A DNA stretch of 64,000 bases, from assembly GCF_044324875.1 (NCBI RefSeq), contig NZ_CP172185.1; one strand, given 5' to 3'. The stretch is from Escherichia coli. Its GTDB lineage: Bacteria > Pseudomonadota > Gammaproteobacteria > Enterobacterales > Enterobacteriaceae. Of this stretch, positions 869 to 56,498 are shown in pieces. Position numbers and translations under genes: made by a program. Each line of letters begins with the position of its first letter. The stretch's first letter is position 1. The notes beneath the pieces are model-generated. The model worked only from the letters and a program-made list of their open reading frames with translations. It did no database searches and was not told where the DNA came from.

Positions 869-958
869 GGAGAGATGCCGGAGCGGCTGAACGGACCGGT
901 CTCGAAAACCGGAGTGGGGGCAACTCCACCGGGGGTTCAAATCCCCCTCTCTCCGCCA
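869..958 (+). tRNA. serU: tRNA-Ser (anticodon CGA), 90 nt, long variable arm
   Basis: GGAGAGATGCCGGAGCGGCTGAACGGACCGGTCTCGAAAACCGGAGTGGGGGCAACTCCACCGGGGGTTCAAATCCCCCTCTCTCCGCCA. Anticodon stem CCGGT/ACCGG with loop CTCGAAA gives anticodon CGA. The variable arm differs from the attR copy by two compensatory changes. Confidence 0.9.
898..958 (+). repeat. attL core: 61 bp 3' portion of tRNA-Ser, directly repeated at 47168..47228 with 2 mismatches
   Basis: GGTCTCGAAAACCGGAGT[G/A]GGGGCAACTC[C/T]ACCGGGGGTTCAAATCCCCCTCTCTCCGCCA occurs at both ends of the phage-gene block. Integrase gene lies immediately inside. Confidence 0.75.
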
Positions 959-1003: not shown

Positions 1004-1040
1004 CTTGGAATTACTTGGAATATTTTCTTGGAATATTTTC
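1004..1040 (+). promoter_or_regulatory. Three tandem direct repeats CTTGGAAT(A/T)TT next to attL; putative integrase arm-type binding sites
   Basis: CTTGGAATTA, CTTGGAATATTTTC, CTTGGAATATTTTC in tandem, overlapping the int stop codon. An inverted copy (TTATTCCAAG) lies near attR at about 47113..47124. Confidence 0.4.
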
Positions 1041-2036
1041 AGGTAACGGGACATCAAGTGTTGGTGAAACTTTAACCTTCCGGTCATAGATTAGCACTTG
1101 CCCTTCGGTTTTGTGACCAGAGAAAAGTTGCTTATCCCGGCTGCTTCCTTCATAGTCTGAAATTCCTTTCGCCTTCAGATCATGAAAGGTGAAGTCGGTT
1201 AAAATACCTGAAACTTTGCCTGCGCGATTTCTTGCTTCTACCCACATTTCGTTAAAGCCTTTGTACATATATCGGTTGCCGTATTGATTGCTGATCACAT
1301 AGGCGGATTTTGGTAACTGTTTTGCTTTTTCGACCGCTGCCTGTAATCGTGGACTCCATGCTTTTATCTGTTTTTTCCCTGTTTTCCCTTGCTGGATAAA
1401 GATCCCGTCGTTTCCAATCTGCTCCCATTTCAGCGATAACACATCGGAAACCCTCGCTGCACACAGATAGGCAATTTCCATTGCGATAAAAACAGGAAGG
1501 GGTGCCACGCTTAATACTGCCTGGTATTCTTTGTCGGTTACATATCGTTCGCGGTTTTTGGCCTTGAATTTACTTACTCCTGCACATGGGTTAGCCTTCA
1601 CGTACCCTCGCTCATACCCCCAACTGTAAACACGGGACATACTGCTTTTTTCATGGTTGGCTTGCGTTTTACTCTGTTCCCCTCTTTTGTCCATGTATCG
1701 ACGGATGTGTTCTGGTTTTATGGAATCCGCTGGTACCTTACCGAATACGGCAAGCAACTTTTTTTGATGTTGCAGATAATCTTTTTGTGTTCTTGGACTA
1801 AGGTCACTGTAACAGGCGCTGGCGAGGAATTTTTCCCACAAGCGACCGAATGTCATTGCACGATCGCGATTATTTACAGTTTCCTCATACTTTTTCCATA
1901 AAGCAGCTAAACCATCCTTGATGGCGGTTAGTGTTACAGATTCTCTGGATGTTGGTTTCCATACATAACTATATTTATTTGGGTATACATTTGGAGGTAA
2001 TTTTTCGTGTTCAGGATTTTTCCTTCGTCTTCCCAT
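1011..2036 (-). CDS. int: Tyrosine integrase, lambda Int family
   Basis: 341 aa ORF. N-terminus MGRRRKNPEHEKLPPNVY resembles lambda Int MGRRRSHERRDLPPNLY. Adjacent to the tRNA attachment site. Confidence 0.9.
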   Translation of the reverse strand: MGRRRKNPEHEKLPPNVYPNKYSYVWKPTSRESVTLTAIKDGLAALWKKYEETVNNRDRAMTFGRLWEKFLASACYSDLSPRTQKDYLQHQKKLLAVFGKVPADSIKPEHIRRYMDKRGEQSKTQANHEKSSMSRVYSWGYERGYVKANPCAGVSKFKAKNRERYVTDKEYQAVLSVAPLPVFIAMEIAYLCAARVSDVLSLKWEQIGNDGIFIQQGKTGKKQIKAWSPRLQAAVEKAKQLPKSAYVISNQYGNRYMYKGFNEMWVEARNRAGKVSGILTDFTFHDLKAKGISDYEGSSRDKQLFSGHKTEGQVLIYDRKVKVSPTLDVPLPENIPRKYSK

Positions 2037-5137: not shown

Positions 5138-5692
5138 CTATTTAATACTCAGCAACTGCTCGACGGTCATATTTTTAATTGCGCCCCGGTTTATGAGAGT
5201 CCATCCCTGCTTTTCCAGATAAAAACGGAAAGTATCCAGAGTACAGACCAGTGCGCCATCAGGAACTGTTTCGGTGAATTTGATGTAGCCGTGTTCGTCG
5301 AAGCGGATAACCAGGGTGCGGCCATCACCCGGGATTATTTTGTCAGCGGGTGTGGTGTTATTCCGGCGCAGTTCTTCCTCCATGCGGTCGAACTCGGCAA
5401 TGTAGGCTTCCTTGAATGCAGCGGCCTTTTTGCCCGTGAAGCCCATCACAAGGAAAACGAAGCCGTTTTTGGTGATTTGGTACATTGGGAGTTTGCGTCC
5501 TGTTGAGTCGGTGTATTCGCTCGCCTTAAAATTAAGGGCAGTGAACTCAGCGGAGCAGTCCAGTAATTTTATTTTTTGGATAACATTGTCGTGACGCTTG
5601 CCAAAGAATTCCGCGATCGCAACAGACGTAGTGACAGCGCGACCATTTTCAATGGTTACGTCAGGGTGAGAAAGGGTAAGGGTAGTAGCCAT
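5138..5692 (-). CDS. Phage regulatory protein, Rha-like (185 aa from internal start)
   Basis: Track ORF 5138..5989; the ATG at 5692 is preceded by GGAGG with 8 nt spacing. Sequence from MATTLTLSHPDV...AIAEFFGKRHDNVIQKIKLL resembles the Rha family. A terminator-like hairpin sits inside the upstream extension. Confidence 0.65.
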   Translation of the reverse strand: MATTLTLSHPDVTIENGRAVTTSVAIAEFFGKRHDNVIQKIKLLDCSAEFTALNFKASEYTDSTGRKLPMYQITKNGFVFLVMGFTGKKAAAFKEAYIAEFDRMEEELRRNNTTPADKIIPGDGRTLVIRFDEHGYIKFTETVPDGALVCTLDTFRFYLEKQGWTLINRGAIKNMTVEQLLSIK

Positions 5693-5860
5693 AATGGCAG
5701 CCTCCACGTTGAGTATTGATAACTCACCACCGAGGCTTTCCACGACCATAATGGTGGTGAGACGTACAGGGGTGGAAATACCGGTCAACGTAGAACCCGG
5801 CCAGCCTTGCGGCTGCCCTGCACGCCCCACCATAATCTGAATGTGGCTGTGCTTCACGCA

Positions 5861-5884
5861 TAAAAAAACCGCCTGAGCGCGGTT
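5861..5884 (-). terminator. Rho-independent terminator-like hairpin on the minus strand
   Basis: Minus-strand AACCGC-GCTCAG-GCGGTT followed by a T-run; lies between dicF and the Rha-like gene. Confidence 0.5.
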
Positions 5885-6167
5885 GTGCGCTACGTTTGAC
5901 TTCGGGTTTCCACGCCCGGCACCCGGTTTATGAGGTGCAGGTGCACTATAATTCCACCCGTACTGGTTTTCAATAGCTACATTCAACATTTTCTCTTACC
6001 TTTCATCACCGAAGTGAACTTTGTTGATGCGGTGCCAGGTGCCTCCAGGTGACGTTAACCAGTTAACAATTAACGCCGGATACAGAGAATCCACCCATAA
6101 CTCTGTTTTTGGTTTTAACTGTTCCACGTGCGATCAGCCGCATTCACCACATCACAAAATTCACTTT

Positions 6168-6225
6168 AAAAAGGGCGGCAGAGCAGTCACGGAGTAAAAC
6201 TGATACCGCAAAACGTCACCAGAAA
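6168..6225 (-). ncRNA. dicF: DicF sRNA homolog (ftsZ-targeting sRNA of Qin-type prophages)
   Basis: Minus strand reads TTTCTGGTGACGTTTTGCGGTATCAGTTTTACTCCGTGACTGCTCTGCCGCCCTTTTT, nearly identical to the recalled K-12 DicF (one difference) and ending in its own terminator. Lies downstream of a DicA-like repressor as in Qin. Confidence 0.7.
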
Positions 6226-7627: not shown

Positions 7628-8026
7628 TTATGCCCGATGCCCTTTCCGGGCAGCGAGCCATCTTTCAATTGTGCGATCCATTAACTCTTTTTTGTCTTTC
7701 ATCTCCTGAAGCATTTGCTCTTGATCTTCCTCTGGAAATGCCTCAAATGTTTGAAGTAGCTCCTTTTGCCTAGGAGTTATTTTTATTATATCTTGTATTC
7801 TGTCATTTTTTTCTTCATTTAACGGTAAGAAGAACCAATACTGAGGATATCCTGTTGCTTCAGATAGTTTATCTAGATTAGCTGCTGTAGGGCTTGAGAT
7901 ACCACAAACCCATCTTTGAACGGATTGTTGAGTAATGCCAATTCTGCGCGCAAGTTCTGCCTGGCTCCAGCCTGTTACCAACAAAAGCTTCCTAATTCTA
8001 AGAGCACTAATTTCGAGTACACCCAT
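7628..8026 (-). CDS. paaR: PaaR-like HTH regulator (DicA paralog); start uncertain (track ORF extends to 8101 from TTG)
   Basis: XRE-type HTH (GWSQAELARRIGITQQSVQRWVCG). C-terminal LTPRQKELLQTFEAFPEEDQEQMLQEMKDKKELM is paralogous to the C-terminus of the adjacent repressor. Sits directly upstream of the antitoxin-toxin pair. Confidence 0.6.
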   Translation of the reverse strand: MGVLEISALRIRKLLLVTGWSQAELARRIGITQQSVQRWVCGISSPTAANLDKLSEATGYPQYWFFLPLNEEKNDRIQDIIKITPRQKELLQTFEAFPEEDQEQMLQEMKDKKELMDRTIERWLAARKGHRA

Positions 8027-8060
8027 CTGATATATCTTGTTTTTAAGAGTATGCTTCCCA

Positions 8061-8432
8061 TCAGGCGCGGCGACCTTGCTGCGCCAACCAACGTGCGACA
8101 AAATCTTCCATTGCTTCTTTTTTGTTTCTTAGTTCTTTTATGATCTCTTGCTGTTCATTATCAGGAAATGCACTAAATATTTGTAGCAATTCCAGCTGGT
8201 TAGGGGTTAATGCTATAGCTCTTGATGATGGAGACTCTGTTATGTCTTCTGGCTCAATATCAAGATAACCCCCTGGCATCCCATATGTTTGTTCAATACG
8301 TCTAGCTGCTTTTTCGCCAAACGTAGCCTTACCGCTCATTAACTGAGATAAGTAACTTTTCTCTTTGGGTGGCAAAGTTCTGTCTTTGAACCACTCTTTG
8401 AGGCGTAAACGCCGAATCTCTCTTGTTTCCAT
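8061..8432 (-). CDS. dicA: Prophage immunity repressor, DicA-like (HTH_XRE)
   Basis: 123 aa. HTH (SYLSQLMSGKATFGEKAARRIEQTYG) and C-terminal LTPNQLELLQIFSAFPDNEQQEIIKELRNK resemble recalled Qin DicA. Divergent from the cro-like gene. Confidence 0.75.
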   Translation of the reverse strand: METREIRRLRLKEWFKDRTLPPKEKSYLSQLMSGKATFGEKAARRIEQTYGMPGGYLDIEPEDITESPSSRAIALTPNQLELLQIFSAFPDNEQQEIIKELRNKKEAMEDFVARWLAQQGRRA

Positions 8433-13215: not shown

Positions 13216-13451
13216 TTTTATGGATCACCTTTCTGATTGATTTCATATTGGCGAGGTGACGGGAGTTAAGTAGAATTGCTGCGGGTGCTTGAGGCTATCT
13301 GCCTCGGGCATGAACACCAACGGCAGATAGAGAAAAGCCCCAGTTAACATTATGCGTCCTGCAAGACGCTTAACATTAATCTGAGGCAGAATCTATGTCT
13401 AGCAAATGTAGGTTAGCCTCTTACGTGCCGAAAGGCAAGGAGAAGCAGGCT

Positions 13452-13607
13452 ATGAAGCAGCAAAAGGCGATGTTAGTCGCCCTGATCGTCATCTGTATTA
13501 CCGTCATTGTGACGGCACTGGTAACGAGGAAAGACCTCTGCGAGGTACGAATCCGAACCGGCCAGACGGAGGTCGCTGTCTTCACAGCTTACGAACCTGA
13601 GGAGTAA
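13452..13607 (+). CDS. hok: Hok/Gef-family membrane toxin (type I toxin-antitoxin)
   Basis: MKQQKAMLVALIVICITVIVTALVTRKDLCEVRIRTGQTEVAVFTAYEPEE (51 aa) closely resembles HokD/RelF. Track ORF 13395..13607 carries an in-frame upstream extension. Upstream leader has inverted repeats. Confidence 0.8.
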   Translation: MKQQKAMLVALIVICITVIVTALVTRKDLCEVRIRTGQTEVAVFTAYEPEE

Positions 13608-34031: not shown

Positions 34032-35474
34032 ATGGGTAAAGGCAGCAGTAAGGGGCATACCCCGCGCGAAGCGAAGGACAACCTGAAGTCCACGCAGTTG
34101 CTGAGTGTGATCGATGTCATCAGCGAAGGGCCGATACAAGGACCGGTGGATGGATTAAAAAGCGTGCTGCTGAACGGTACGCCGGTGCTGGACAGTGAGG
34201 GGAATACCAATATATCCGGCGTCACGGTGGTATTCCGGGCCGGTGAGCAGGAGCAGACGCCGCCGGAGGGATTTGAATCCTCCGGCTCCGAGACGGTGCT
34301 GGGTACGGAAGTGAAGTACGACACGCCGATTACCCGGACCATCACGTCGGCAAACATCGACCGTCTGCGCCTGACCTTCGGTGTGCAGGCACTGGTGGAA
34401 ACCACCTCAAAGGGGGACCGGAATCCGTCGGAAGTCCGCCTGCTGGTTCAGATACAGCGTAACGGTCGCTGGTTAACGGAAAAAGACATCACCATTAAGG
34501 GCAAAACCACCTCGCAGTATCTGGCCTCGGTGGTGGTGGGTAACCTGCCGCCGCGCCCGTTCAGTATCCGGATGCGCAGGATGACGCCGGACAGCACCAC
34601 AGACCAGCTGCAGAACAAAACGCTCTGGTCGTCATACACCGAAATCATCGATGTGAAACAGTGCTACCCGAACACGGCACTGGTCGGTGTGCAGGTGGAT
34701 TCGGAGCAGTTCGGCAGCCAGCAGGTGAGCCGTAATTATCATCTTCGCGGGCGCATTCTGCAGGTGCCGTCGAACTATAACCCGCAGACGCGGCAATACA
34801 GCGGTATCTGGGACGGAACGTTTAAACCGGCATACAGCAACAACCCGGCCTGGTGTCTGTGGGATATGCTGACCCATCCGCGCTACGGCATGGGGAAACG
34901 TGTTGGCGCAGCGGATGTGGATAAATGGGCGCTGTATGTCATCGGCCAGTACTGCGACCAGTCAGTGCCGGACGGCTCTGGTGGCACGGAGCCGCGCATC
35001 ACCTGTAATGCCTGGCTGACCACACAGCGTAAGGCGTGGGATGTGCTCAGTGATTTCTGCTCGGCGATGCGCTGTATGCCGGTATGGAACGGGCAGACGC
35101 TGACGTTCGTGCAGGACCGACCGTCGGATAAGGTGTGGACCTATAACCGCAGTAATGTGGTGATGCCGGATGATGGCGCGCCGTTCCGCTACAGCTTCAG
35201 CGCCCTGAAGGACCGCCATAATGCCGTTGAGGTGAACTGGAGTGACCCGGATAACGGCCAGGAGACGGCGACAGAGCTTGTGGAGGACACGCAGGCCATT
35301 GCCCGTTACGGTCGTAACGTCACGAAGATGGATGCCTTTGGCTGTACCAGCCGGGGGCAGGCACACCGCGCCGGGCTGTGGCTGATTAAAACAGAACTGC
35401 TGGAGACGCAGACCGTGGATTTCAGCGTGGGTGCTGAAGGGCTTCGCCATGTACCGGTGCAAAATGGCATCTGA
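34032..35474 (+). pseudogene. J: Host specificity protein J, N-terminal fragment (interrupted by IS21-family insertion at about 35458)
   Basis: MGKGSSKGHTPREAKDNLKSTQLLSVIDVISEGPIQGPVDGLKSVLLNGTPVLD matches lambda J. The reading frame runs into the IS and stops at 35474. Confidence 0.85.
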
Positions 35475-35659
35475 ATCGATCGCAGTTTGGCATTCGAATC
35501 GATCATGATTTGGCATCCATCTCCGATCACAGTTTGGCATCACAATCGATCACGATTTGGCATGCTTCCGATCATTGATTGGCATCCTGCCAGTCACTCC
35601 GGGAATTAACTCTTTTCACCACAGTCTCCATTGCCGTGTTTAAACCAGTGGAGACGTCA

Positions 35660-37225
35660 ATGTCCAGAAAGAGAAAATCCAGGAGCACTATGGAAACCTG
35701 TTTTAAGATCCTTCAGCTCAAGTTCGACAAGAAGCTGACTAACCGTTGTATCGGACTGACGTTACACATCAGCGCCTCAACCGTTTTTGAGGTTCTTGCC
35801 CGCTTCAAAGCCTCTTCTCTGTCATGGCCATTACCTGCTGATATATCCCATGACACGCTGGAGAAACTCATTTTTCCGCCCAAAGACACCTTTGCATCAG
35901 AGCTTGTAATGCCTGACATGTTGTACTTCGATACGGAAATGAGAAAACCAGGTGTGACGCGGCAACTGTTGTGGATGGAATACAAGGCACAGGCGGGTAA
36001 CAAAGCGATGGGATACTCGCACTTCTGCCGTTGCTACCGGGAGTGGAAAAAAACGCGACGTCTCTCCATGCGCCAGGAGCATCGTGCCGGCGAAAAGCTT
36101 TTTATCGACTTCTGTGGTCCTACGGTTCCTGTTATTAATCCGGACACCGGTGAGATACGCCGCGTGGCAATCTTCGTGGCCGTAATGGGGGCGTCCAACT
36201 ATACCTACGTTGAAGCGTGCGAAGGTCAGGACATGATGTCATGGTTAAATGCCCACAGCCGTTGCCTGACCTTCCTGGGCGGCGTACCGAAGCTGCTCAT
36301 CCCCGATAACCTCAGAAGCGCAGTGAAAAAGGCCGATCGATATGAGCCTGTCATCAACGACAGTTATCAGGCACTGGCTGAGCACTATGGCACGGTTATC
36401 ATCCCGGCCCGACCACGCAAACCTAAAGATAAACCAAAAGCAGAAAACGGCGTCCTCATCGTTGAACGATGGCTTCTTGCCCGCATCCGTAATGAAACCT
36501 TCCACACGCTCAGGGCGCTGAATGCGCGCCTTAGGGAGTTACTGACAGACATGAATAACCGGCCAATGAAGGGGTACGGCAATCAAACCCGTGCAGAACG
36601 CTTCCGCATACTGGATGCGCCAGCACTCTCTCCGCTGCCTCTGGCACCTTATGAATACACGGAATACAAAGCTGTGAAGGTTGGCCCTGACTACCACGTT
36701 GAATATGCCCGTCACTGGTACTCCGTTCCACACGAACTGGTCGGTCAGCGTCTGTCACTGAAGGCGGGGCAGTCGGTGGTACAGCTCTGGCACAAGGGGC
36801 AGTGTGTGGCGCAACATCCGCGCAGCACACATGAATATAAACACACAACCAATCCGCTTCACATGCCAGAGCGCCACCGGCAGCACGGGACATGGACACC
36901 GGAACGCCTGATCGAGCAGGGAAAACGTACGGGCCCGTCCACAGGCCGGGTGGTTGAATCCATGCTGAAGGCAAAACCCCATCCGGAACTGGCTTATCGT
37001 GCAGTTCTGGGGCTGCTGGCACTTCAGAAAAAATACGGCCCGGAACGGCTGGAAAAGGCCTGTTACGTTGCCCTGCACTATAACGCCCCTGACAGACGCT
37101 TTATCGACAATCTGCTGCGTCACCATCGGGAGAACCTGGAGCTTCCATTATCCCGCCAGGGCGAACAACATCCGGCATATGCTTCAGAGCATGAAAACCT
37201 GCGTGGTCCGGGCTACTACCACTGA
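35660..37225 (+). CDS. istA: IS21-family transposase IstA
   Basis: Internal ATG at 35660 with GGAG RBS; about 521 aa with N-terminal HTH and DDE-type core. Confidence 0.85.
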   Translation: MSRKRKSRSTMETCFKILQLKFDKKLTNRCIGLTLHISASTVFEVLARFKASSLSWPLPADISHDTLEKLIFPPKDTFASELVMPDMLYFDTEMRKPGVTRQLLWMEYKAQAGNKAMGYSHFCRCYREWKKTRRLSMRQEHRAGEKLFIDFCGPTVPVINPDTGEIRRVAIFVAVMGASNYTYVEACEGQDMMSWLNAHSRCLTFLGGVPKLLIPDNLRSAVKKADRYEPVINDSYQALAEHYGTVIIPARPRKPKDKPKAENGVLIVERWLLARIRNETFHTLRALNARLRELLTDMNNRPMKGYGNQTRAERFRILDAPALSPLPLAPYEYTEYKAVKVGPDYHVEYARHWYSVPHELVGQRLSLKAGQSVVQLWHKGQCVAQHPRSTHEYKHTTNPLHMPERHRQHGTWTPERLIEQGKRTGPSTGRVVESMLKAKPHPELAYRAVLGLLALQKKYGPERLEKACYVALHYNAPDRRFIDNLLRHHRENLELPLSRQGEQHPAYASEHENLRGPGYYH

Positions 37226-37241
37226 CAGAAGGAACAACAGT

Positions 37242-37997
37242 ATGAGTGATAACCTGTTAAACAAACTGACCCAACTGAAACTCCCGGCGATGGCCGGGAG
37301 CCTGATACGGCAGCGGGAAACGCCTCAGACCTACGACGAACTGTCGTTCGAGGAAAGGCTGACGCTGCTGGTTGATGACGAGCTTCTGAGCAGGGAAAAC
37401 AGCCGTGTGGCACGGTTGAGAAAAAATGCCGGCCTGAAATACCAGGCAACACCGGAAGGGCTGCGCTATCCGGCCTCAAGAGGTCTGCGGGCTGAACAGA
37501 TGAGAGAACTGCTGAACGGCCACTACATAACCCACAGGAAAAACCTGCTGATAACCGGTCCGACAGGATGTGGCAAGAGCTGGATAGCCAATGCGCTGGG
37601 CGAACAGGCATGTCGACAGAAACACAGCGTCCGGTACTGTAGAACCGGGCGATTACTGGAACAACTGGCTCAGGGACGTGTTGATGGCAGCTGGCTGAAA
37701 TATCTGAAACAGTTGCAAAAAATACAGGTTCTAATCCTGGACGATCTGGGGCTGGAACAGTTAAGTAACGCCCAGTGTAATGACCTTCTGGAGCTCATAG
37801 AGGATCGTTACGGACAAAGCAGCACGATAGTGGTAAGCCAGTTCCCGGTAGATAAATGGCATGGTCTGATGGAGAACCCAACAACAGCAGATGCCATCCT
37901 GGACAGACTGGTACATAACTCACACCGAGTGGTCCTTCAGGGAGAGTCACTGAGGAAAAATCCCCCGGTAGTGGAAAGCAGCGAAAAAACGCGTTAA
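37242..37997 (+). CDS. istB: IS21-family ATP-binding helper IstB
   Basis: MSDNLLNKLTQLKLPAMAGSL...LITGPTGCGKSWIANALG (Walker A)...LILDDLG (Walker B). Confidence 0.85.
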   Translation: MSDNLLNKLTQLKLPAMAGSLIRQRETPQTYDELSFEERLTLLVDDELLSRENSRVARLRKNAGLKYQATPEGLRYPASRGLRAEQMRELLNGHYITHRKNLLITGPTGCGKSWIANALGEQACRQKHSVRYCRTGRLLEQLAQGRVDGSWLKYLKQLQKIQVLILDDLGLEQLSNAQCNDLLELIEDRYGQSSTIVVSQFPVDKWHGLMENPTTADAILDRLVHNSHRVVLQGESLRKNPPVVESSEKTR

Positions 37998-38096
37998 AAA
38001 GCGGTAGAAAAAGTTAAGTTCCCGGTTGATCGAATGGATGCGAATCGCTGATCGGACTTCGATGCCAATCCGTGATCGAATAGAGCGGAATACGCA

Positions 38097-40219
38097 TACC
38101 GGGCGATGTCATTGAAATCTGTGATGATGACTATGCCGGTATCAGCACCGGTGGTCGTGTGCTGGCGGTGAACAGCCAGACCCGGACGCTGACGCTCGAC
38201 CGTGAAATCACGCTGCCATCCTCCGGTACCACGCTGATAAGCCTGGTTGACGGAAGTGGCAATCCGGTCAGCGTGGAGGTTCAGTCCGTCACCGACGGCG
38301 TGAAGGTAAAAGTGAGCCGGGTTCCTGACGGCGTTGCCGAGTACAGCGTGTGGGGGCTGAAGCTGCCGACGCTGCGCCAGCGCCTGTTCCGCTGCGTGAG
38401 TATCCGTGAGAACGACGACGGCACGTATGCCATCACTGCCGTGCAGCATGTACCGGAAAAAGAGGGCATCGTGGATAACGGGGCACACTTTGACGGTGAC
38501 CAGAGCGGCACGGTGAATGGTGTCACGCCGCCAGCAGTGCAGCACCTGACTGTCGAAGTCACCGCAGACAGCGGGGAGTATCAGGTACTGGCCCGCTGGG
38601 ACACGCCGAAGGTGGTGAAAGGCGTGAGTTTCATGCTTCGCCTGACCGTGGCAGCGGATGACGGCAGTGAGCGGCTGGTCAGCACGGCCCGGACGACGGA
38701 AACCACATACCGCTTCAGGCAGCTGGCGCCGGGGAACTACAGGCTGACAGTCCGGGCAGTAAATGCCCGGGGGCAGCAGGGAGACCCGGCGTCGGTATCG
38801 TTCCGGATTGCCGCACCGGCAGCGCCGTCGCGGATTGAGCTGACGCCGGGCTATTTTCAGATAACCGCCACGCCGCATCTTGCCGTTTATGATCCGACGG
38901 TGCAGTTTGAGTTCTGGTTCTCGGAAAAGCGGATTACCGATATCAGGCAGGTTGAAACCACAGCCCGTTATCTTGGTACCGGAAGTCAGTGGCTTGTCTC
39001 CGGCCAGAATATTAAACCTGGCCATGATTATTACTTTTATATCCGCAGTGTTAACACTGTCGGTAAATCGGCATTCGTGGAGGCAGTCGGTCGGGCGAGT
39101 AATGATCCTGCCGGTTACCTTAATTTTTTCAGGGGGGCGATAAATAAAACGCATCTGGGACGGGAGATCAATGAACGCATTGATGCCTCTGCACGGCGCA
39201 CTGAAGTTGAGCAACTGGAGAATGCGATTAACCGCGAAATGACGCAGCTGGAGAATGCGATTAACCGCGAAATGACGCAGCTGGAGAAAGATGTGAGGCA
39301 GCGTGCGGAGCGTGATATCGCAGAGGTGACGAAAAAAATCACGGCGTCTGAAAACAGCATAACGGAACTGGTGGCGAAAAAGAGCGGTGAACAGTCGCTG
39401 GCCATTGCGAAAGTCGACAGGAAAGTTGACAGCGTGAGCAGTGAAATCCGGCAGACAGTAAGCAGGAGCACGGAGGAGAACAGCCGACAGATAGCGCAGG
39501 TCAGGCAGTATGTTGATGATAAAAGTGCGCAAATAAGTACTGTTGTGGCGAAAAAGAGCGGTGAACAGTCAATGGCCATTGCGGAAGTTGACAGAAAAGT
39601 TGACAGGATGGGCAGCGAAATCCGGCAGACAGTAAGCAGGAGCACGGAGGAGAACAGCCGACAGATAGCGCAGATCAGACAGTATGTTGATGATAAGGGA
39701 AGTCAGATCAAACAGAGCACGGATAAAAAACTGGGATCCTGGAATGCCAGCATTGAGCAGATACAGAAAGTTCAGGAGGACACGCGCCGGAACCTGAACA
39801 GCATGTGGGCTGTGAAGCTGCAGCAGACACGGGATGGACGTCTCTATATTGCAGGTATTGGTGCCGGAATCGAAAATACGTCTGACGGAATTCAGAGTCA
39901 GATCCTGATGCAGGCAGATCGTATTGCGATGATTAACCCGGAAAATGGCAATACAACACCTTTGTTTGTGGCTCAGGGTGATCAGCTGTTCATGAATGAT
40001 GTTTTCATGAAAAAACTGACCGTGGATTTTGCCAGAGTGACGGGAGATATCCGGTCAGATAATTTTCATTCCGGTAGTCCGGGGTGGCGTTTATCAAGAA
40101 ACGGCAGCCTTGAAATTAACTCAGGAAGGCCCGGCGCAGGCCGCCTGTTTTTCAATGGCGAGCGAATCGACGTATATGACGATAACAATGTGTTAAGAGT
40201 ACGACTGGGGAGACTGTAA
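38097..40219 (+). pseudogene. J: Host specificity protein J, C-terminal fragment (distal tip diverges from lambda and carries tandem duplications)
   Basis: Continues the lambda-J-like sequence [43 protein letters not shown]. Track ORF 38159..40219. Confidence 0.85.
39214..39718 (+). repeat. Tandem duplications inside the J distal region: 2 x 33 bp and 2 x about 174 bp
   Basis: CTGGAGAATGCGATTAACCGCGAAATGACGCAG twice ([11 protein letters not shown] x2). A larger unit starting GTGGCGAAAAAGAGCGGTGAACAGTC repeats at about 39371 and 39545 with about 90 percent identity. Confidence 0.7.
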
Positions 40220-41162: not shown

Positions 41163-41408
41163 ATGAAAATAATCGTCTGCACTTTTTTGCTGTTTCTTGT
41201 ATCAGGTTGCGCGGGGTACCGTTCCGTTACGGAGAGAGTCCGGTGCACCGGTGTGCTGAGTCCCGGGGTTTTACAGCGAGCTTATACGGTAGATCTTACA
41301 GGGAAAATAGAAACGAAAAGCGGCACTGTGTATAAAGTATCAGCTCCGAGATTTTATGGTCAGTGGGTGAGTGAAGATATGTTTACGAAAGTTTCGTGCG
41401 TGAAGTAA
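41163..41408 (+). CDS. Small predicted lipoprotein (81 aa); possible Cor-like superinfection-exclusion protein
   Basis: MKIIVCTFLLFLVSGC lipobox; located between J and the side tail fibre, where cor-type genes sit in some lambdoid phages. Function is inferred from position only. Confidence 0.5.
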   Translation: MKIIVCTFLLFLVSGCAGYRSVTERVRCTGVLSPGVLQRAYTVDLTGKIETKSGTVYKVSAPRFYGQWVSEDMFTKVSCVK

Positions 41409-41483: not shown

Positions 41484-42812
41484 ATGGCGGCTGTAAAAAT
41501 TTCAGGCGTGCTCAGGGACGGAACCGGAAAACCGGTACCGGGATGCATTATTGAGCTGAAAGCGAAGAGAACCAGCGAGACAGTCATCGCCACGACAGTG
41601 GCTTATGGCATGCCGGAAGAGACGGGGAGTTACAGTATGGATGTGGAGCCAGGAATATACAGGGTGACACTCAATACAGAAGGTTACCGTCCTTCGTATG
41701 TGGGAGATATCGTGGTCAGGGAGGATTCTTCACCGGGAACACTGAATAAATTTCTGATGGAGATGGAAGATGCTCCTTATTATCCGAAGGCGTTGTCAGA
41801 GCTGGAGGCTGTGGTGCAGTCCATACTGCACAGAGCAGAGTCCGCGGCATCTGAGGCGGAGGAAGCCCGGAAGCGAGCAGCATCTGCCCGGGGACCACGA
41901 GGAGAGAAAGGGGATACCGGCGCTCGTGGTGAAAGAGGCATTACCGGGCCACAGGGGCCAAAAGGTGAAACAGGAGCACGTGGCCCGGCAGGACCACAGG
42001 GACCAAAAGGTGAAACAGGTGAACGCGGTCCGGCAGGTCCACAGGGACCAAAGGGCGATACAGGTGAACGCGGCCCGGCAGGTCCACAGGGACCAAAAGG
42101 TGAAACAGGTGCACGTGGTCCGGAAGGTCCACAGGGAGCAAAAGGTGAAACAGGTGAACGCGGCCCGGCAGGTCCACAGGGAGCAAAGGGCGAAACAGGT
42201 GCACGTGGTCCGGAAGGCCCTCAGGGTCTGAAGGGAGAAAAGGGTGAGCGAGGAGAAAAAGGCCCTAAGGGGGATAAAGGAGATCCGGGAGGTCCACAGG
42301 GACCAAAAGGTGAAACAGGTGAACGTGGCCCGGCAGGTCCACAGGGACCAAAAGGTGAAACAGGTGAACGTGGCCCGGCAGGTCCACAGGGACCAAAGGG
42401 CGATACAGGTGAACGCGGTCCGGCAGGTCCACAGGGGCCAAGAGGGTATACAGGTGAACGCGGGCCGACAGGTCTACAGGGGCCAAGAGGGTATACAGGT
42501 GAACGCGGGCCGGCAGGTCCACAGGGGCCAAGAGGAGAAGCGGGGCGGCCAGCGAGCGTCGGAAGTGTTTATTCCGTGGGGTCTTATGTTCTGGGGATCA
42601 TAGAACGAAATCATGAGATAACAAATACCCGTCAAATACCCGGGTATCGTATCAGACAGGCCGTTATTGTGTCGTCGTCATCGGATAAACTTACAGATAT
42701 CCGCTTTTTATTTGGCAATCCTATGCTTGGTACATGGATGTTATGCACAACTAACATGGCGGTGAATAATATCAGTGGGACGATTTGGGGCCTGTTTCAG
42801 AGAATACTGTGA
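41484..42812 (+). CDS. stf: Side tail fibre protein with collagen-like Gly-X-Y repeats
   Basis: N-terminal tail-fibre domain ([63 protein letters not shown]) followed by about 70 G-X-Y triplets. Confidence 0.85.
41884..42546 (+). repeat. Collagen-like triplet repeat array (tandem about 45 bp units) within the tail fibre gene
   Basis: Repeated GGTCCACAGGGACCAAAAGGTGAAACAGGTGAACGCGGCCCGGCA-type units encoding [15 protein letters not shown]; explains the many antisense ORFs in the track here. Confidence 0.8.
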
Positions 42813-42827
42813 CAGGGGGAGAAATGA

Positions 42828-42950
42828 ATGAAGGTCGATAAAATCACGTCACCAGTGTGGGCTGACAGGGGTCATACGACCATAAACTGTATAGTGAAGT
42901 TTTCAGACGCGGAAACAGAATGTGTATTTACAGCAAGTGCGGATGATCCG
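42828..42950 (+). pseudogene. tfa: Tail fibre assembly protein, N-terminal 41 codons (interrupted by IS66-family insertion)
   Basis: ATG at 42828 with GGGGGAG RBS; MKVDKITSPVWADRGHTTINCIVKFSDAETECVFTASADDP then a stop inside the IS end. Confidence 0.6.
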
Positions 42951-43032
42951 TAACCGGCTCATTTAAACCGTCTGGTCTGTTTCCTCCGGCTCTACAAAAA
43001 TAATGTCCATCATTTTTAATGGACACTATCGT

Positions 43033-43680
43033 ATGAAACACCGGACCTGGATCACTGAAGCTTTACGTCTTCACTTTGAAGAACATTTACCCCGGGTTGT
43101 GGCCGGGCGTCGCCTGGGTGTACCAAAATCAACAGTTTGTAGTATGTTCGTGCGCTTTCGGAGAGCTGGCCTTTCGTGGCCTTTGCCCGCAGGCATGTCG
43201 GAGCAGGAACTTGATGCCTGCCTTTACGGACAATTTTCCACGGTACCAGTCGTACGTCCTGAAAGCACCGTTATATCCGAAGCCCCCGTGGTAAAAAAAC
43301 GTCCCCGGCGGCCCAACTTCCCTTATGAGTTTAAAATCGCCTTAGTGGAGCAGTCACTGCAGCCCGGAGCCTGTGTGGCGCAGATCGCCCGGGAAAACGG
43401 AATCAACGATAACCTGCTCTTCAACTGGCGCCATCAATACCGGAAAGGTGGCCTGCTGCCTTCCGGAAAAAATATGCCGGCACTGCTTCCCGTGACGTTA
43501 ACGCCGGAGCCGGATAATAAAATCCCGGCCCCCGCACAGGAACCAGAGCAGATAAATACACCGTCCGACAGTCTGTGTTGTGAGCTGGTTCTGCCGGCCG
43601 GAACTCTCAGGCTTAAAGGTAAACTGACGCCGGCGTTATTACAGACACTTATCCGCGAAATAAAAGGGAGCAGCCACTGA
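43033..43680 (+). CDS. tnpA: IS66-family accessory protein TnpA (orf1)
   Basis: Internal Met of track ORF 43003..43680; HTH-like N-terminus. Confidence 0.7.
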   Translation: MKHRTWITEALRLHFEEHLPRVVAGRRLGVPKSTVCSMFVRFRRAGLSWPLPAGMSEQELDACLYGQFSTVPVVRPESTVISEAPVVKKRPRRPNFPYEFKIALVEQSLQPGACVAQIARENGINDNLLFNWRHQYRKGGLLPSGKNMPALLPVTLTPEPDNKIPAPAQEPEQINTPSDSLCCELVLPAGTLRLKGKLTPALLQTLIREIKGSSH

Positions 43681-44027
43681 TGATATCTCTCCCTGCAGGT
43701 TCGCGTATCTGGCTGGTTGCAGGTATCACCGATATGCGAAATGGCTTTAACGGCCTGGCATCAAAAGTTCAGAACGTCCTGAAGGATGACCCGTTCTCCG
43801 GACACCTGTTCATCTTCCGCGGACGCCGGGGTGACCAGATAAAAGTGTTGTGGGCTGACAGTGACGGACTGTGCCTCTTCACCAAACGCCTGGAGCGGGG
43901 CCGCTTCGTCTGGCCAGTCACCCGTGACGGCAAGGTGCACCTTACTCCGGCTCAGTTATCCATGCTTCTTGAAGGTATCAACTGGAAGCACCCGAAACGA
44001 ACGGAACGCGCTGGAATCCGCATATAA
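43680..44027 (+). CDS. tnpB: IS66-family TnpB (orf2)
   Basis: 115 aa; MISLPAGSRIWLVAGITDMRNGFNGLASKVQNVLKDDPFSGHLFIFRGRRGDQIKVLWAD is the typical IS66 Orf2. Confidence 0.85.
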   Translation: MISLPAGSRIWLVAGITDMRNGFNGLASKVQNVLKDDPFSGHLFIFRGRRGDQIKVLWADSDGLCLFTKRLERGRFVWPVTRDGKVHLTPAQLSMLLEGINWKHPKRTERAGIRI

Positions 44028-44046
44028 CCCGTTGTAAAGTGAGGAT

Positions 44047-45618
44047 ATGGACACCTCACTTGCTCATGAGAACGCCCGCCTGCGGGCACTGTTGCAGACG
44101 CAACAGGACACCATCCGCCAGATGGCTGAATACAACCGCCTGCTCTCACAGCGGGTGGCGGCTTATGCTTCCGAAATCAACCGGCTGAAGGCGCTGGTTG
44201 CGAAACTGCAACGTATGCAGTTCGGTAAAAGCTCAGAAAAACTTCGTGCAAAAACCGAACGGCAGATACAGGAAGCACAGGAGCGAATCAGCGCACTTCA
44301 GGAAGAAATGGCGGAAACGCTGGGTGAGCAATATGACCCGGTACTGCCATCCGCCCTGCGCCAGTCTTCAGCCCGTAAACCGTTACCGGCCTCACTTCCC
44401 CGTGAAACCCGGGTTATCCGGCCGGAAGAGGAATGCTGTCCTGCCTGTGGTGGTGAACTCAGTTCTCTGGGATGTGATGTGTCAGAGCAACTGGAGCTTA
44501 TCAGCAGCGCCTTTAAGGTTATCGAAACACAACGTCCGAAACAGGCCTGTTGCCGGTGCGACCATATCGTGCAGGCACCAGTACCTTCAAAACCCATTGC
44601 ACGCAGTTATGCCGGAGCGGGGCTTCTGGCCCATGTTGTCACCGGGAAATATGCAGACCATCTGCCGTTATACCGCCAGTCAGAAATATACCGTCGTCAG
44701 GGAGTGGAGCTGAGCCGTGCCACACTGGGGCGCTGGACAGGTGCTGTTGCTGAACTGCTGGAGCCGCTGTATGACGTCCTGCGCCAGTATGTGCTGATGC
44801 CCGGTAAAGTCCATGCTGATGATATCCCCGTCCCGGTCCAGGAGCCGGGCAGCGGTAAAACCCGGACAGCCCGGCTGTGGGTCTACGTCCGTGATGACCG
44901 TAACGCCGGTTCACAGATGCCCCCGGCGGTCTGGTTCGCGTACAGTCCGGACCGGAAAGGTATCCATCCACAAAATCACCTGGCCGGTTACAGCGGTGTG
45001 CTTCAGGCCGATGCTTACGGTGGTTACCGGGCGTTATACGAATCCGGCAGAATAACGGAAGCCGCGTGTATGGCTCATGCCCGGAGAAAAATCCACGATG
45101 TGCATGCAAGAGCGCCCACCTACATCACCACGGAAGCCCTGCAGCGTATCGGTGAACTGTATGCCATCGAGGCAGAGGTCCGGGGCTGTTCAGCAGAACA
45201 GCGTCTGGCGGCAAGAAAAGCCAGAGCCGCGCCACTGATGCAGTCACTGTATGACTGGATACAGCAACAGATGAAAACACTGTCGCGTCACTCAGATACG
45301 GCAAAAGCGTTCGCATACCTGCTGAAACAGTGGGATGCACTGAACGTGTACTGCAGTAATGGCTGGGTGGAAATCGACAACAACATCGCAGAGAACGCCT
45401 TACGGGGAGTGGCCGTAGGCCGGAAAAACTGGATGTTCGCGGGTTCCGACAGCGGTGGTGAACATGCGGCGGTGTTGTACTCGCTGATCGGCACATGCCG
45501 TCTGAACAATGTGGAGCCAGAAAAGTGGCTGCGTTACGTCATTGAACATATCCAGGACTGGCCGGCAAACCGGGTACGCGATCTGTTGCCCTGGAAAGTT
45601 GATCTGAGCTCTCAGTAA
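44047..45618 (+). CDS. tnpC: IS66-family transposase TnpC (orf3)
   Basis: 523 aa with N-terminal coiled coil, Cys cluster CPACGG...CCRCDH, and DDE-type core. Confidence 0.85.
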
Positions 45619-45648
45619 ATATCAATACGGTTCTGACGAGTCGCTTAC

Positions 45649-46110
45649 GATGATCCTGAGTCTTACGGTCGTGAAATATTTGAAGCCTGCATAAGAGGTG
45701 ATGCAGGGCCGGTAGGTGAGTACCGGGCAAATGATGATATGGCTGTGGAAGAAGCACGCAGGATGAAAAACGCGGAGATAAATGCCTGGCGTGATGCGAT
45801 GGAGGCGTCAGGGTATGTTTTTGAGCACAGAGGACGGAAATGGGATTATGGAAAGGAAACCATGACACGTCTTGGAATGTCGGCATCAGCGGCCAGAGGC
45901 GGTGTGTTGCCGGAAGGATTTTTCTGGACGGACGCAGAGAATAATGATGTACCGATGACGGCAGATGAACTGATATCCCTGAGTGATGCTGCTGGTAAAG
46001 CGATGTTCAGGAAAGGCCTTGAAATACATATAAGGCAAAGGGAGATGAAAAAGGCAATAGCAGAACTGAGTGACAGTGAAACCATTCTGGCGTACAGGGT
46101 TGGATGGTGA
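45649..46110 (+). pseudogene. tfa: Tail fibre assembly protein, C-terminal fragment
   Basis: In frame with the N-terminal fragment once the IS and one TSD copy are removed (..ADDPESYGREIFEACIRGDAGPVGEY..); track ORF 45739..46110. Confidence 0.6.
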
Positions 46111-47167: not shown

Positions 47168-47228
47168 GGTCTCGAAAACCGGAGTAGGGGCAACTCTACC
47201 GGGGGTTCAAATCCCCCTCTCTCCGCCA
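47168..47228 (+). repeat. attR: partial 3' copy of tRNA-Ser with the host-type variable arm
   Basis: GGTCTCGAAAACCGGAGTAGGGGCAACTCTACCGGGGGTTCAAATCCCCCTCTCTCCGCCA; lacks the tRNA 5' half. Confidence 0.75.
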
Positions 47229-55870: not shown

Positions 55871-56498
55871 TATGTATTCCCTTGTGATTATAATCTTCAT
55901 GAATATATCAATAAGTGCCGTTATCCAAAAAAAAGCACATTTGGATACTATTCTATGAAGTTCATTTTATTTTAAAGATTACATGTAACAAATATATTTA
56001 AAAGATTTCAAAATGTTTCTAATCTATTTAATATAATTCAGAATTATGAATTCTAAATATAAATATTCATGAAAATTATAAATGTATATCAATATGTTAT
56101 GAGTTGAGCGGAAACATAGGGGGTATCAATGATTGTTGCGCCAAACGGCTGGTGTGATCACGCGCACATTAATGAAGGCATAAAAAAAGCCGGCATCATG
56201 CCGGCCCAAAAAAAATAAACAAGACGATAAAAGGCTAATAACGGAAGCATCATGACACAGAATAATAAAAAGGTATAATTGTAATCAGTGCTAATATATT
56301 GATTGAATGAATTAATAAAGCCGATATCAAAGATAAATAAAATCGCTCAAAACGATTTTTCCTGTATTCACTGCCGTTGCGCAAAAATTATCTATTTGTT
56401 CAAAAAATGATTGAGTCTTGACTGGCTCATCCAATGTGGAAAAATGTGACTTTTATCACATAATAGTACTAAGTCTGAATTTTCCGGGTTATCTCAAA

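Follow-up and report, generated by a model that had tools for sequence, protein, structure and literature searches.

The gene J of a lambdoid prophage in Escherichia coli was found to be split by an insertion sequence (IS), and we are highly confident that a complete, apparently transposition-competent ISSso4-like element of the IS21 family inserted at codon 475/476. The element occupies 35458..38096 (+ strand) of the window, which is the whole 64,000-nucleotide stretch of DNA analyzed here. It is 2639 bp long, begins with TG (35458-59) and ends with CA (38095-96), and the same ends were present in seven other copies. On each side lies the 6-bp sequence TACCGG (35452..35457 and 38097..38102), and the boundaries read GCCATG-TACCGG/TGCAAAATGGCAT ... 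GCGGAATACGCA/TACCGG-GCGATG. Target duplications of the IS21 family are usually 4-8 bp long, and the chance probability of matching 6-bp flanks is about 1/4096. The first-pass annotation had proposed a 2.64-kb istA-istB element of this family with TG...CA termini and a TACCGG target duplication at 35452-38102. All of this was borne out, no observation spoke against the proposed structure, and the span equals the element plus both duplications exactly.

The 5′ part of J (34032..35457, + strand) holds codons 1-475 and the first base of codon 476. Its reading frame enters the IS, adds the five IS-encoded residues VQNGI and stops at 35474. The 3′ part (38102..40219, + strand) holds codons 476-1180 plus the stop, has no start of its own, and contains tandem coiled-coil repeats at 39211-39288 and 39371-39696. 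When the IS and one TACCGG were taken out, the J frame was continuous, and translation of the rejoined segments (34032-35457 and 38103-40219) gave 1180 aa with zero stops. The junction reads ...GLRHVP, after which J resumes. In the alignment with lambda gpJ (PDB 8iyk_J), the junction lies between residues numbered 475 and 476 in both proteins, in agreement with the earlier proposal that J matches lambda up to GLRHVP and resumes precisely behind the element.

Restored J was compared with lambda gpJ (PDB 8IYK, 8XCI). In phmmer, it matched 8iyk_J with 1902 bits over residues 1-838, which aligned without gaps to residues 1-838 of lambda gpJ, and residues 1024-1122 aligned further to lambda 842-941. 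It differed from lambda gpJ in an extra coiled-coil repeat segment of about 185 aa after residue 838 and in its C-terminal receptor-binding end, which was unlike the LamB-binding domain of lambda. The protein was thus collinear with gpJ through the hub and the fibronectin type III (FNIII) domains. The gene position was that of a lambda-type tail tip protein as well, with the upstream ORFs belonging to PHROG minor tail and tail assembly families, the counterparts of lambda M, L, K and I. In this lambdoid prophage, J encodes the protein that forms the tail-tip hub and the central fibre and determines host specificity.

An uninterrupted J was found in other E. coli genomes. Among complete E. coli genomes, the left J flank matched in 4566, and every match ended exactly at 35457. 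The rebuilt empty site matched continuously in 4411 genomes, with a best DNA identity of 99.5%. This best match, from E. coli AR_0085, is an intact, annotated gpJ that carries one TACCGG at the site; when both flanks from the window were aligned to it, they overlapped in that single TACCGG only. The AR_0085 gene is the same allele in intact form. The restored 1180-aa J was 92% identical to its product overall, and the difference came almost wholly from a further 58-aa repeat unit that AR_0085 carries (three units, compared with two in restored J). The boundaries of the IS are fixed by three independent observations, namely full-length IS matches with unrelated flanks, the stop of the flank matches at 35457, and the continuity of the rebuilt empty site. 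The J::IS junction itself was absent from 5426 complete E. coli genomes, in which matches ended at the IS boundary, and the exact 480-aa truncated J had no record in an index of 153 billion genes. Accordingly, the insertion is known from this one sequence alone.

Terminal inverted repeats (TIRs) of the IS21 family consist of multiple direct repeats (PMC10122671), and the ends of this element were built in the same way. The left terminal region (35458..35586, + strand) consists of the terminal unit TGCAAAATGGCAT and, behind it, five direct repeats of about 23 bp that share the 17-nt unit CGATC-N5-TTGGCAT. The right terminal region (38027..38096, - strand) carries two inverted repeats, CGATCACGGATTGGCAT at 38062-78 and CGATCAGCGATTCGCAT at 38038-54, and the terminal unit ...GCGGAATACGCA. 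The 17-nt unit occurred five times at the left end (+) and twice, inverted, at the right end, and nowhere else in the window; these seven copies compare with 0.54 expected, and none of 100 shuffles reached seven. The shorter motif TTTGGCAT had four copies within 80 bp of the left end, but was not significant by itself across the window (7 matches compared with 4.5 expected). The multiple repeats noted in the first-pass annotation are thus upheld by the longer unit. The end repeats are presumed to be IstA binding sites.

The istA gene (35660..37225, + strand) encodes a DDE transposase of 521 aa from the ATG at 35660; RefSeq places the start in identical copies at 35690, which gives 511 aa. IstA scored 284.6 bits against NF033546 (IS21 family transposase; cut-off 160) and could be aligned to IstA of IS5376 (PDB 8q4d/8b4h). 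The Pfam domains rve and Mu-transpos_C_2 were detected, in keeping with the family layout of IstA (N-terminal helix-turn-helix, DDE/rve core and C-terminal beta-barrel). D, D and E fell in aligned columns (FIDF, IPDN, KAEN), and, from the usual DDE pattern, they are the putative catalytic triad. Downstream on the same strand, 37242..37997 encodes IstB, an AAA+ helper ATPase of 251 aa, whose start at 37242 follows the istA stop at 37225. IstB scored 257.8 bits against NF038214 (cut-off 200) and matched PF01695 at 1.2e-60; its Walker A (GPTGCGKS) and Walker B (LILDDLG) motifs both aligned with those of IS5376 IstB (PDB 8q3w). Neither gene had a frameshift or stop relative to identical copies annotated as intact, and the IS copy is apparently complete and transposition-competent.

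The element is not new; it is well known, and its insertion here is a real but ordinary event. Copies that are 100% identical (positions 1-2639) with unrelated flanks are carried by many E. coli chromosomes and plasmids, and some strains have the same IS at as many as 23 sites in one genome. The identical copies on so many chromosomes and plasmids indicate, indirectly, that this ISSso4-like element is currently active and spreading in E. coli. The target duplications of other copies were 4-7 bp long (CCCGG, GTCAAT, CGCAGAC, AGGA, TTACCTG and GTAAA, and CTCAGGC in Shigella sonnei). RefSeq labels the proteins "IS21 family transposase" (IstA, a generic name) and "IS21-like element ISSso4 family helper ATPase IstB". 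At the DNA level, the element had 96.3% identity with plasmid copies from S. sonnei that RefSeq assigns to the ISSso4 family; the name comes from the annotation of these 96%-identical copies and not from the ISfinder reference, and isoform level is about 95% DNA identity or more. Compared with the S. sonnei copies, IstA was identical at 499 of 511 residues (97.7%) and IstB at 244 of 250 (97.6%). The terminal sequences and the layout of the end repeats were identical over the outermost 118 bp or so on the left and 40 bp or so on the right, whereas the DNA diverged by about 4%. In the literature found, neither length nor end structure was given for ISSso4, which is listed merely as a plasmid or Shigella IS.

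The element shared with IS21 and IS5376 the istA-istB operon, the DDE transposase with a beta-barrel, the AAA+ helper, the terminal CA, the repeat-built TIRs and the short target duplication. It was different from IS5376 in its larger size (2.64 kb) and longer IstA (511-521 aa, compared with roughly 400 residues in IS5376; PMC10122671). Furthermore, IS5376 has only L1-L2 and R1-R2, whereas the present element has about six end repeats on the left and about three on the right. The similarity to the IS5376 proteins was distant, with E values of about 1e-13 for IstA and 1e-24 for IstB.

The prophage that bears J is full-length, about 46 kb, and lambdoid, with HK97-type head genes and lambda-type tail genes, and is integrated in the E. 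coli chromosome at tRNA-Ser(CGA). Its left boundary is attL (898..958, + strand), the 3′ part of the tRNA gene, which is repeated at attR (47168..47228, + strand) as a 61-bp copy with 2 mismatches and 31 bp exact, marking the right boundary. Full-length PHROG matches were obtained for the regulators, replication genes, Q, the lysis cassette, terminase, portal, protease, capsid and connectors, and likewise for the major tail protein, assembly chaperones, tape measure and four minor tail or tail-assembly proteins before J. A second intact IS, of the IS66 family (42950-45648), lies within a gene for a DUF4376 protein that follows the side tail fibre gene, and has the 8-bp duplication GATGATCC. 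Besides the two IS, no other obvious breaks were seen in the prophage modules; some small ORFs may hold subtle defects.

The second IS bears on the question of whether the prophage had decayed before the J insertion, in which case the break in J would be only one of many lesions and would not explain the defect. The broken DUF4376 gene would fit such a history; however, the prophage has kept its integrase and the two att sites, and the modules from regulators to tail are full-length. The restored J was free of stops and its rebuilt site matched an intact allele at 99.5%, the DUF4376 product restored by removal of the IS66-family element was 100% identical to an intact protein, and the duplications were perfect at both IS copies. 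Such duplications indicate that both elements entered a phage that was still functional, and did so recently. Prior decay is therefore improbable, and the description of the prophage as a remnant in the first-pass annotation did not hold, as attL, attR, the integrase and the genes for regulation, replication, lysis, head and tail are all in place. The two IS are intact and independent, and both hit the part of the prophage that serves adsorption and host range, while the rest is complete. It is very improbable that this is more than a coincidence and reflects target preference or host-level selection for disarming the virion while keeping other prophage genes, or that the orphaned J C-terminal fragment is expressed as a receptor-masking factor.

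An assembly artefact, in which IS reads were misjoined because of the repeat, has an almost negligible probability. Misassembly typically arises at IS copies, this IS reaches up to 23 sites per genome in some strains, and the junction is in no other record; nevertheless, a misjoin would not give a perfect 6-bp duplication of bases that are single at the empty site. Moreover, both flanks continue the J frame, and 6 bp is within the 4-7 bp range of the other copies. The split gene could also be functional in itself, for instance with the C-terminal receptor-binding fragment, made through read-through or from an outward promoter, acting as a receptor-masking or exclusion factor. An in-frame ORF of 686 aa does start from the GTG at 38159, and the IS and J are co-oriented, so that late transcription could read through the IS. 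However, the scan of 35300-38300 returned no sigma-70-like promoter that would drive the orphaned 3′ part of J or istA, no sign of a selected start or ribosome-binding site was seen, and a configuration seen once gives no sign of conservation or selection. A functional split J is scarcely probable.

The IS21-family mechanism involves TIRs of multiple repeats, a terminal CA and an IstA tetramer (PMC10122671), and IstB decamers bend the target, in which the cuts are staggered (PMC11208146). By analogy with the family, insertion of the ISSso4-like element into J would have begun with IstA binding the repeated units of both ends and exposing the 3′-OH of the terminal CA. IstB would have assembled on the target DNA, bent it, and recruited and activated IstA. 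Strand transfer staggered by 6 bp, followed by gap repair, would then have given the TACCGG duplication. The insertion was probably recent.

Translation of J would now end five codons into the IS and give a 480-aa fragment (residues 1-475 plus five IS-encoded residues), and the remaining 705 codons at the 3′ side would lack a start of their own. From the domain order of gpJ (PMC11101478), the truncated product would be without part of the hub domains, all FNIII domains, the shaft, the central fibre and the receptor-binding domain. Thus, the tails would almost certainly be disabled by the IS in J. Tail-less heads are expected because tails of the lambda type are built up from a tip complex that contains J. 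The induced prophage would still excise, replicate, package and lyse, and the released heads would be tail-less and non-infective; a compatible tail or J from another lambdoid prophage would rescue infectivity. The proposal of the first-pass annotation that J is inactivated, and that the particles would infect only with tails provided in trans, is therefore reasonable.

In annotation, both fragments of J belong together as one IS-disrupted pseudogene. In prophage scoring, the element should be classed as "complete but tail-defective", neither intact nor remnant. In addition, the locus is a clean textbook example of IS21-family ends, with multi-repeat TIRs and a duplication length that varies from copy to copy.

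The inserted segment (35458..38096, 2639 bp) began with TG and ended with CA, and copies of TACCGG (35452-57 and 38097-102) directly abutted both of its ends. The left junction read ...GGG CTT CGC CAT GTA CCG G, followed by the IS start TGCAAAATGGCATC..., and the right junction passed from the IS end ...GCGGAATACGCA through TACCGG into GCGATGTCATT.... With the left-junction query, J, the prophage tail-tip gene homologous to lambda gpJ, was matched in 4566 genomes, and all matches ended at query position 558, corresponding to window 35457. The rebuilt empty site, with 500 bp on each side and a single TACCGG, was matched without a break in 4411 genomes, and the best match (99.5%) was to an intact gpJ annotated in E. 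coli AR_0085. When aligned on this gpJ, the window flanks shared only six bases, TACCGG. The boundaries and the duplication, which the first-pass annotation had proposed together with TG...CA termini, were thus confirmed by the junction, empty-site and AR_0085 alignments, and the termini were read at the element's ends. The J::IS junction appeared unique among the data searched, and its significance is at the strain level only.

The interrupted J ORF (34032..) ran five codons into the IS (VQNGI) and met a stop at 35474. Joining 34032-35457 to 38103-40219 gave a single open frame of 1180 codons that read through the join; the flanks therefore form a continuous J, and the observation stands. The restored J aligned without gaps to residues 1-838 of lambda gpJ (PDB 8iyk_J, 1902 bits), so that, in lambda numbering, residues 475 and 476 flank the break; its residues 1024-1122 aligned with lambda gpJ 842-941. 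It differed from lambda gpJ by a coiled-coil repeat region between the aligned segments and at the extreme C-terminus. Tandem coiled-coil repeats were located in the C-terminal shaft region, encoded by the 3' part of J, at 39211-39288 and 39371-39696 (a 33-bp unit, 2.4 copies, and a 174-bp unit, 1.9 copies). The AR_0085 J was the same allele, intact and otherwise near-identical, but carried the 58-aa repeat three times against two in the window J, indicating that repeat copy number differs between J alleles.

The element carried istA (35660-37225) as its first ORF, for which RefSeq used a start at 35690 in identical copies, giving 511 aa. The second ORF, istB (37242-37997, 251 aa), started 16 bp downstream of istA. 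IstA scored 284.6 bits against NCBIfam NF033546, 'IS21 family transposase' (cut-off 160), and contained the Pfam domains rve and Mu-transpos_C_2. It was aligned with the IstA of IS5376, an IS21-family member with solved IstA and IstB structures, and D, D and E fell in aligned columns (FIDF, IPDN, KAEN); from the usual DDE pattern, these are presumably the catalytic triad. IstB scored 257.8 bits against NF038214, 'IS21-like element helper ATPase IstB' (cut-off 200), and 1e-60 against PF01695, and both Walker motifs, A as GPTGCGKS and B as LILDDLG, lined up with IS5376 IstB. With both proteins above their cut-offs, the earlier assignment to an istA-istB element of the IS21 family held.

The left end consisted of a terminal unit, TGCAAAATGGCAT, and then five CGATC-N5-TTGGCAT units spaced 22-24 bp apart, and the right end of a terminal unit and two inverted CGATC-N5-TTGGCAT units. 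Within the 64-kb window, this 17-nt motif was confined to the IS ends (7 found against 0.54 expected), and no shuffle reached 7. The repeat originally singled out, TTTGGCAT, did occur in four copies in the left end, but it was not in itself unusual window-wide. A terminal CA and multiple repeats inside the terminal inverted repeats are features of the IS21 family (PMC10122671). All defining features of the family that are testable in silico were found.

By megablast, the 2639-bp segment was present in full (query 1-2639) and at 100% identity on many chromosomes and plasmids, in unrelated sequence surroundings. Among 5426 complete E. coli genomes, 1778 had some megablast match and 225 a near-full-length one; in the plasmid collection, 506 records matched. 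Two of six E. coli copies examined with their flanks were base-for-base the window copy, with istA and istB annotated as intact by RefSeq, which labelled IstB of these E. coli copies 'ISSso4 family'. S. sonnei plasmid copies, with the ISSso4 label on both proteins, were 96.3% identical to the window copy in DNA, 499/511 in IstA and 244/250 in IstB, and their ends were the same over the outermost ~118 bp (left) and ~40 bp (right). On these labels and identities, the element is called ISSso4-like. It has already been annotated hundreds of times in RefSeq; the papers found on ISSso4 do no more than list it with other IS elements of Shigella and of plasmids. The six E. coli copies had the target duplications CCCGG, GTCAAT, CGCAGAC, AGGA, TTACCTG and GTAAA, and an S. 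sonnei copy had CTCAGGC. The duplication of this element is therefore variable (4-7 bp), and 6 bp in J is typical. In E. coli ESDR8, where the IS lay at at least 12 chromosomal places, a stand-alone 2636-bp record (NZ_JBXSPU010000008.1) was the IS alone (positions 1-2636, 100% identity). Such a record could have arisen in assembly from a high-copy repeat, or could represent the IS in a free or tandem-junction form.

By analogy with the family, IstA tetramers would bring the two repeat-carrying ends together and act through the 3'-OH of the terminal CA (PMC10122671), and IstB decamers would bend the target DNA, bringing in and activating IstA, which would make two staggered cuts (PMC11208146). 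Filling of a 6-nt stagger by repair would then yield the TACCGG duplication.

The J-bearing prophage (~46.3 kb, of which ~5.3 kb is IS DNA) lay between attL (898-958), in the 3' part of tRNA-Ser(CGA), and attR (47168-47228), a 61-bp repeat of that part with 2 mismatches; the integrase gene was at 1011-2036 (minus strand). Full-length PHROG matches covered integrase, exonuclease, repressor/Cro/CII-like regulators, replication initiator, DnaC-like loader, RusA and Q; holin, endolysin and Rz; small and large terminase, portal, protease and HK97-type capsid; connector proteins, major tail protein and tape measure; two tail assembly chaperone ORFs at the lambda G and T positions; and minor tail and tail assembly proteins at the M, L, K and I positions. 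The prophage is therefore complete except for IS damage, and the whole mosaic was absent from the complete-genome collection. The host flank (zinT, msrQP, hiuH, hprRS, hchA, ompC) found its best match among complete genomes at 99.5% identity, and by its sequence the chromosome is that of E. coli. An rseX Hfq-binding sRNA match (56182-56271, minus strand, 95.1 bits) adjoined the ompC-like porin gene in this flank.

A second intact IS, of the IS66 family (ISCro1-like; 42950-45648, 2699 bp; tnpA, tnpB, tnpC), began GTAACCGG..., ended ...CGCTTAC and was flanked by an 8-bp target duplication, GATGATCC, at 42942-42949 and 45649-45656. It interrupted a DUF4376 gene, whose rebuilt 191-aa product was 100% identical to the intact AR_0085 protein; this gene closely follows the side tail fibre gene (41484-42812). 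The latter encoded a long collagen-like Gly-X-Y region, with 45/90/135-bp tandem repeats spanning 41949-42539. Between it and J, a small lipoprotein-like ORF (41163-41408, plus strand) scored 28.4 bits against the phage exclusion lipoprotein Cor (NF047972), below the cut-off of 31. In the prophage early region, a sok antitoxin RNA match (Rfam, 13283-13457, plus strand, 114.9 bits, gathering score 59) is suggestive of a toxin-antitoxin locus of the hok/sok type. Three further RNA matches fell within 5750-5938 and 6173-6224 (both minus strand): C4 antisense RNA (78.6 bits) and isrK (67.1 bits), which overlapped a Rha/anti-repressor-like gene (5138-5989) in its 5' part, and a DicF sRNA (67.3 bits) just upstream. 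Such RNAs are typical of lambdoid or P1-like immunity regions. Two adjoining, slightly overlapping ORFs (7628-8432, minus strand; 157 and 123 aa) both matched the phrog_5736 regulator family (133 positions), and may represent either tandem paralogues or a repressor that has been duplicated or split.

Insertion of IS elements in prophage structural genes is common. The interruption of J is real and was correctly interpreted in the first-pass annotation. From N- to C-terminus, gpJ comprises hub domains, two FNIII domains, an alpha-helical shaft, a central straight fibre and a receptor-binding domain (PMC11101478), so that the truncated 480-aa J is missing part of the hub and all that follows it. 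From established lambda biology, no tail initiator complex would form without J, and induction should therefore give DNA-filled heads without tails. The median number of J-homologous loci per E. coli genome was 3; supply by a helper is thus plausible, as co-resident lambdoid prophages could provide tails or recombinational repair.
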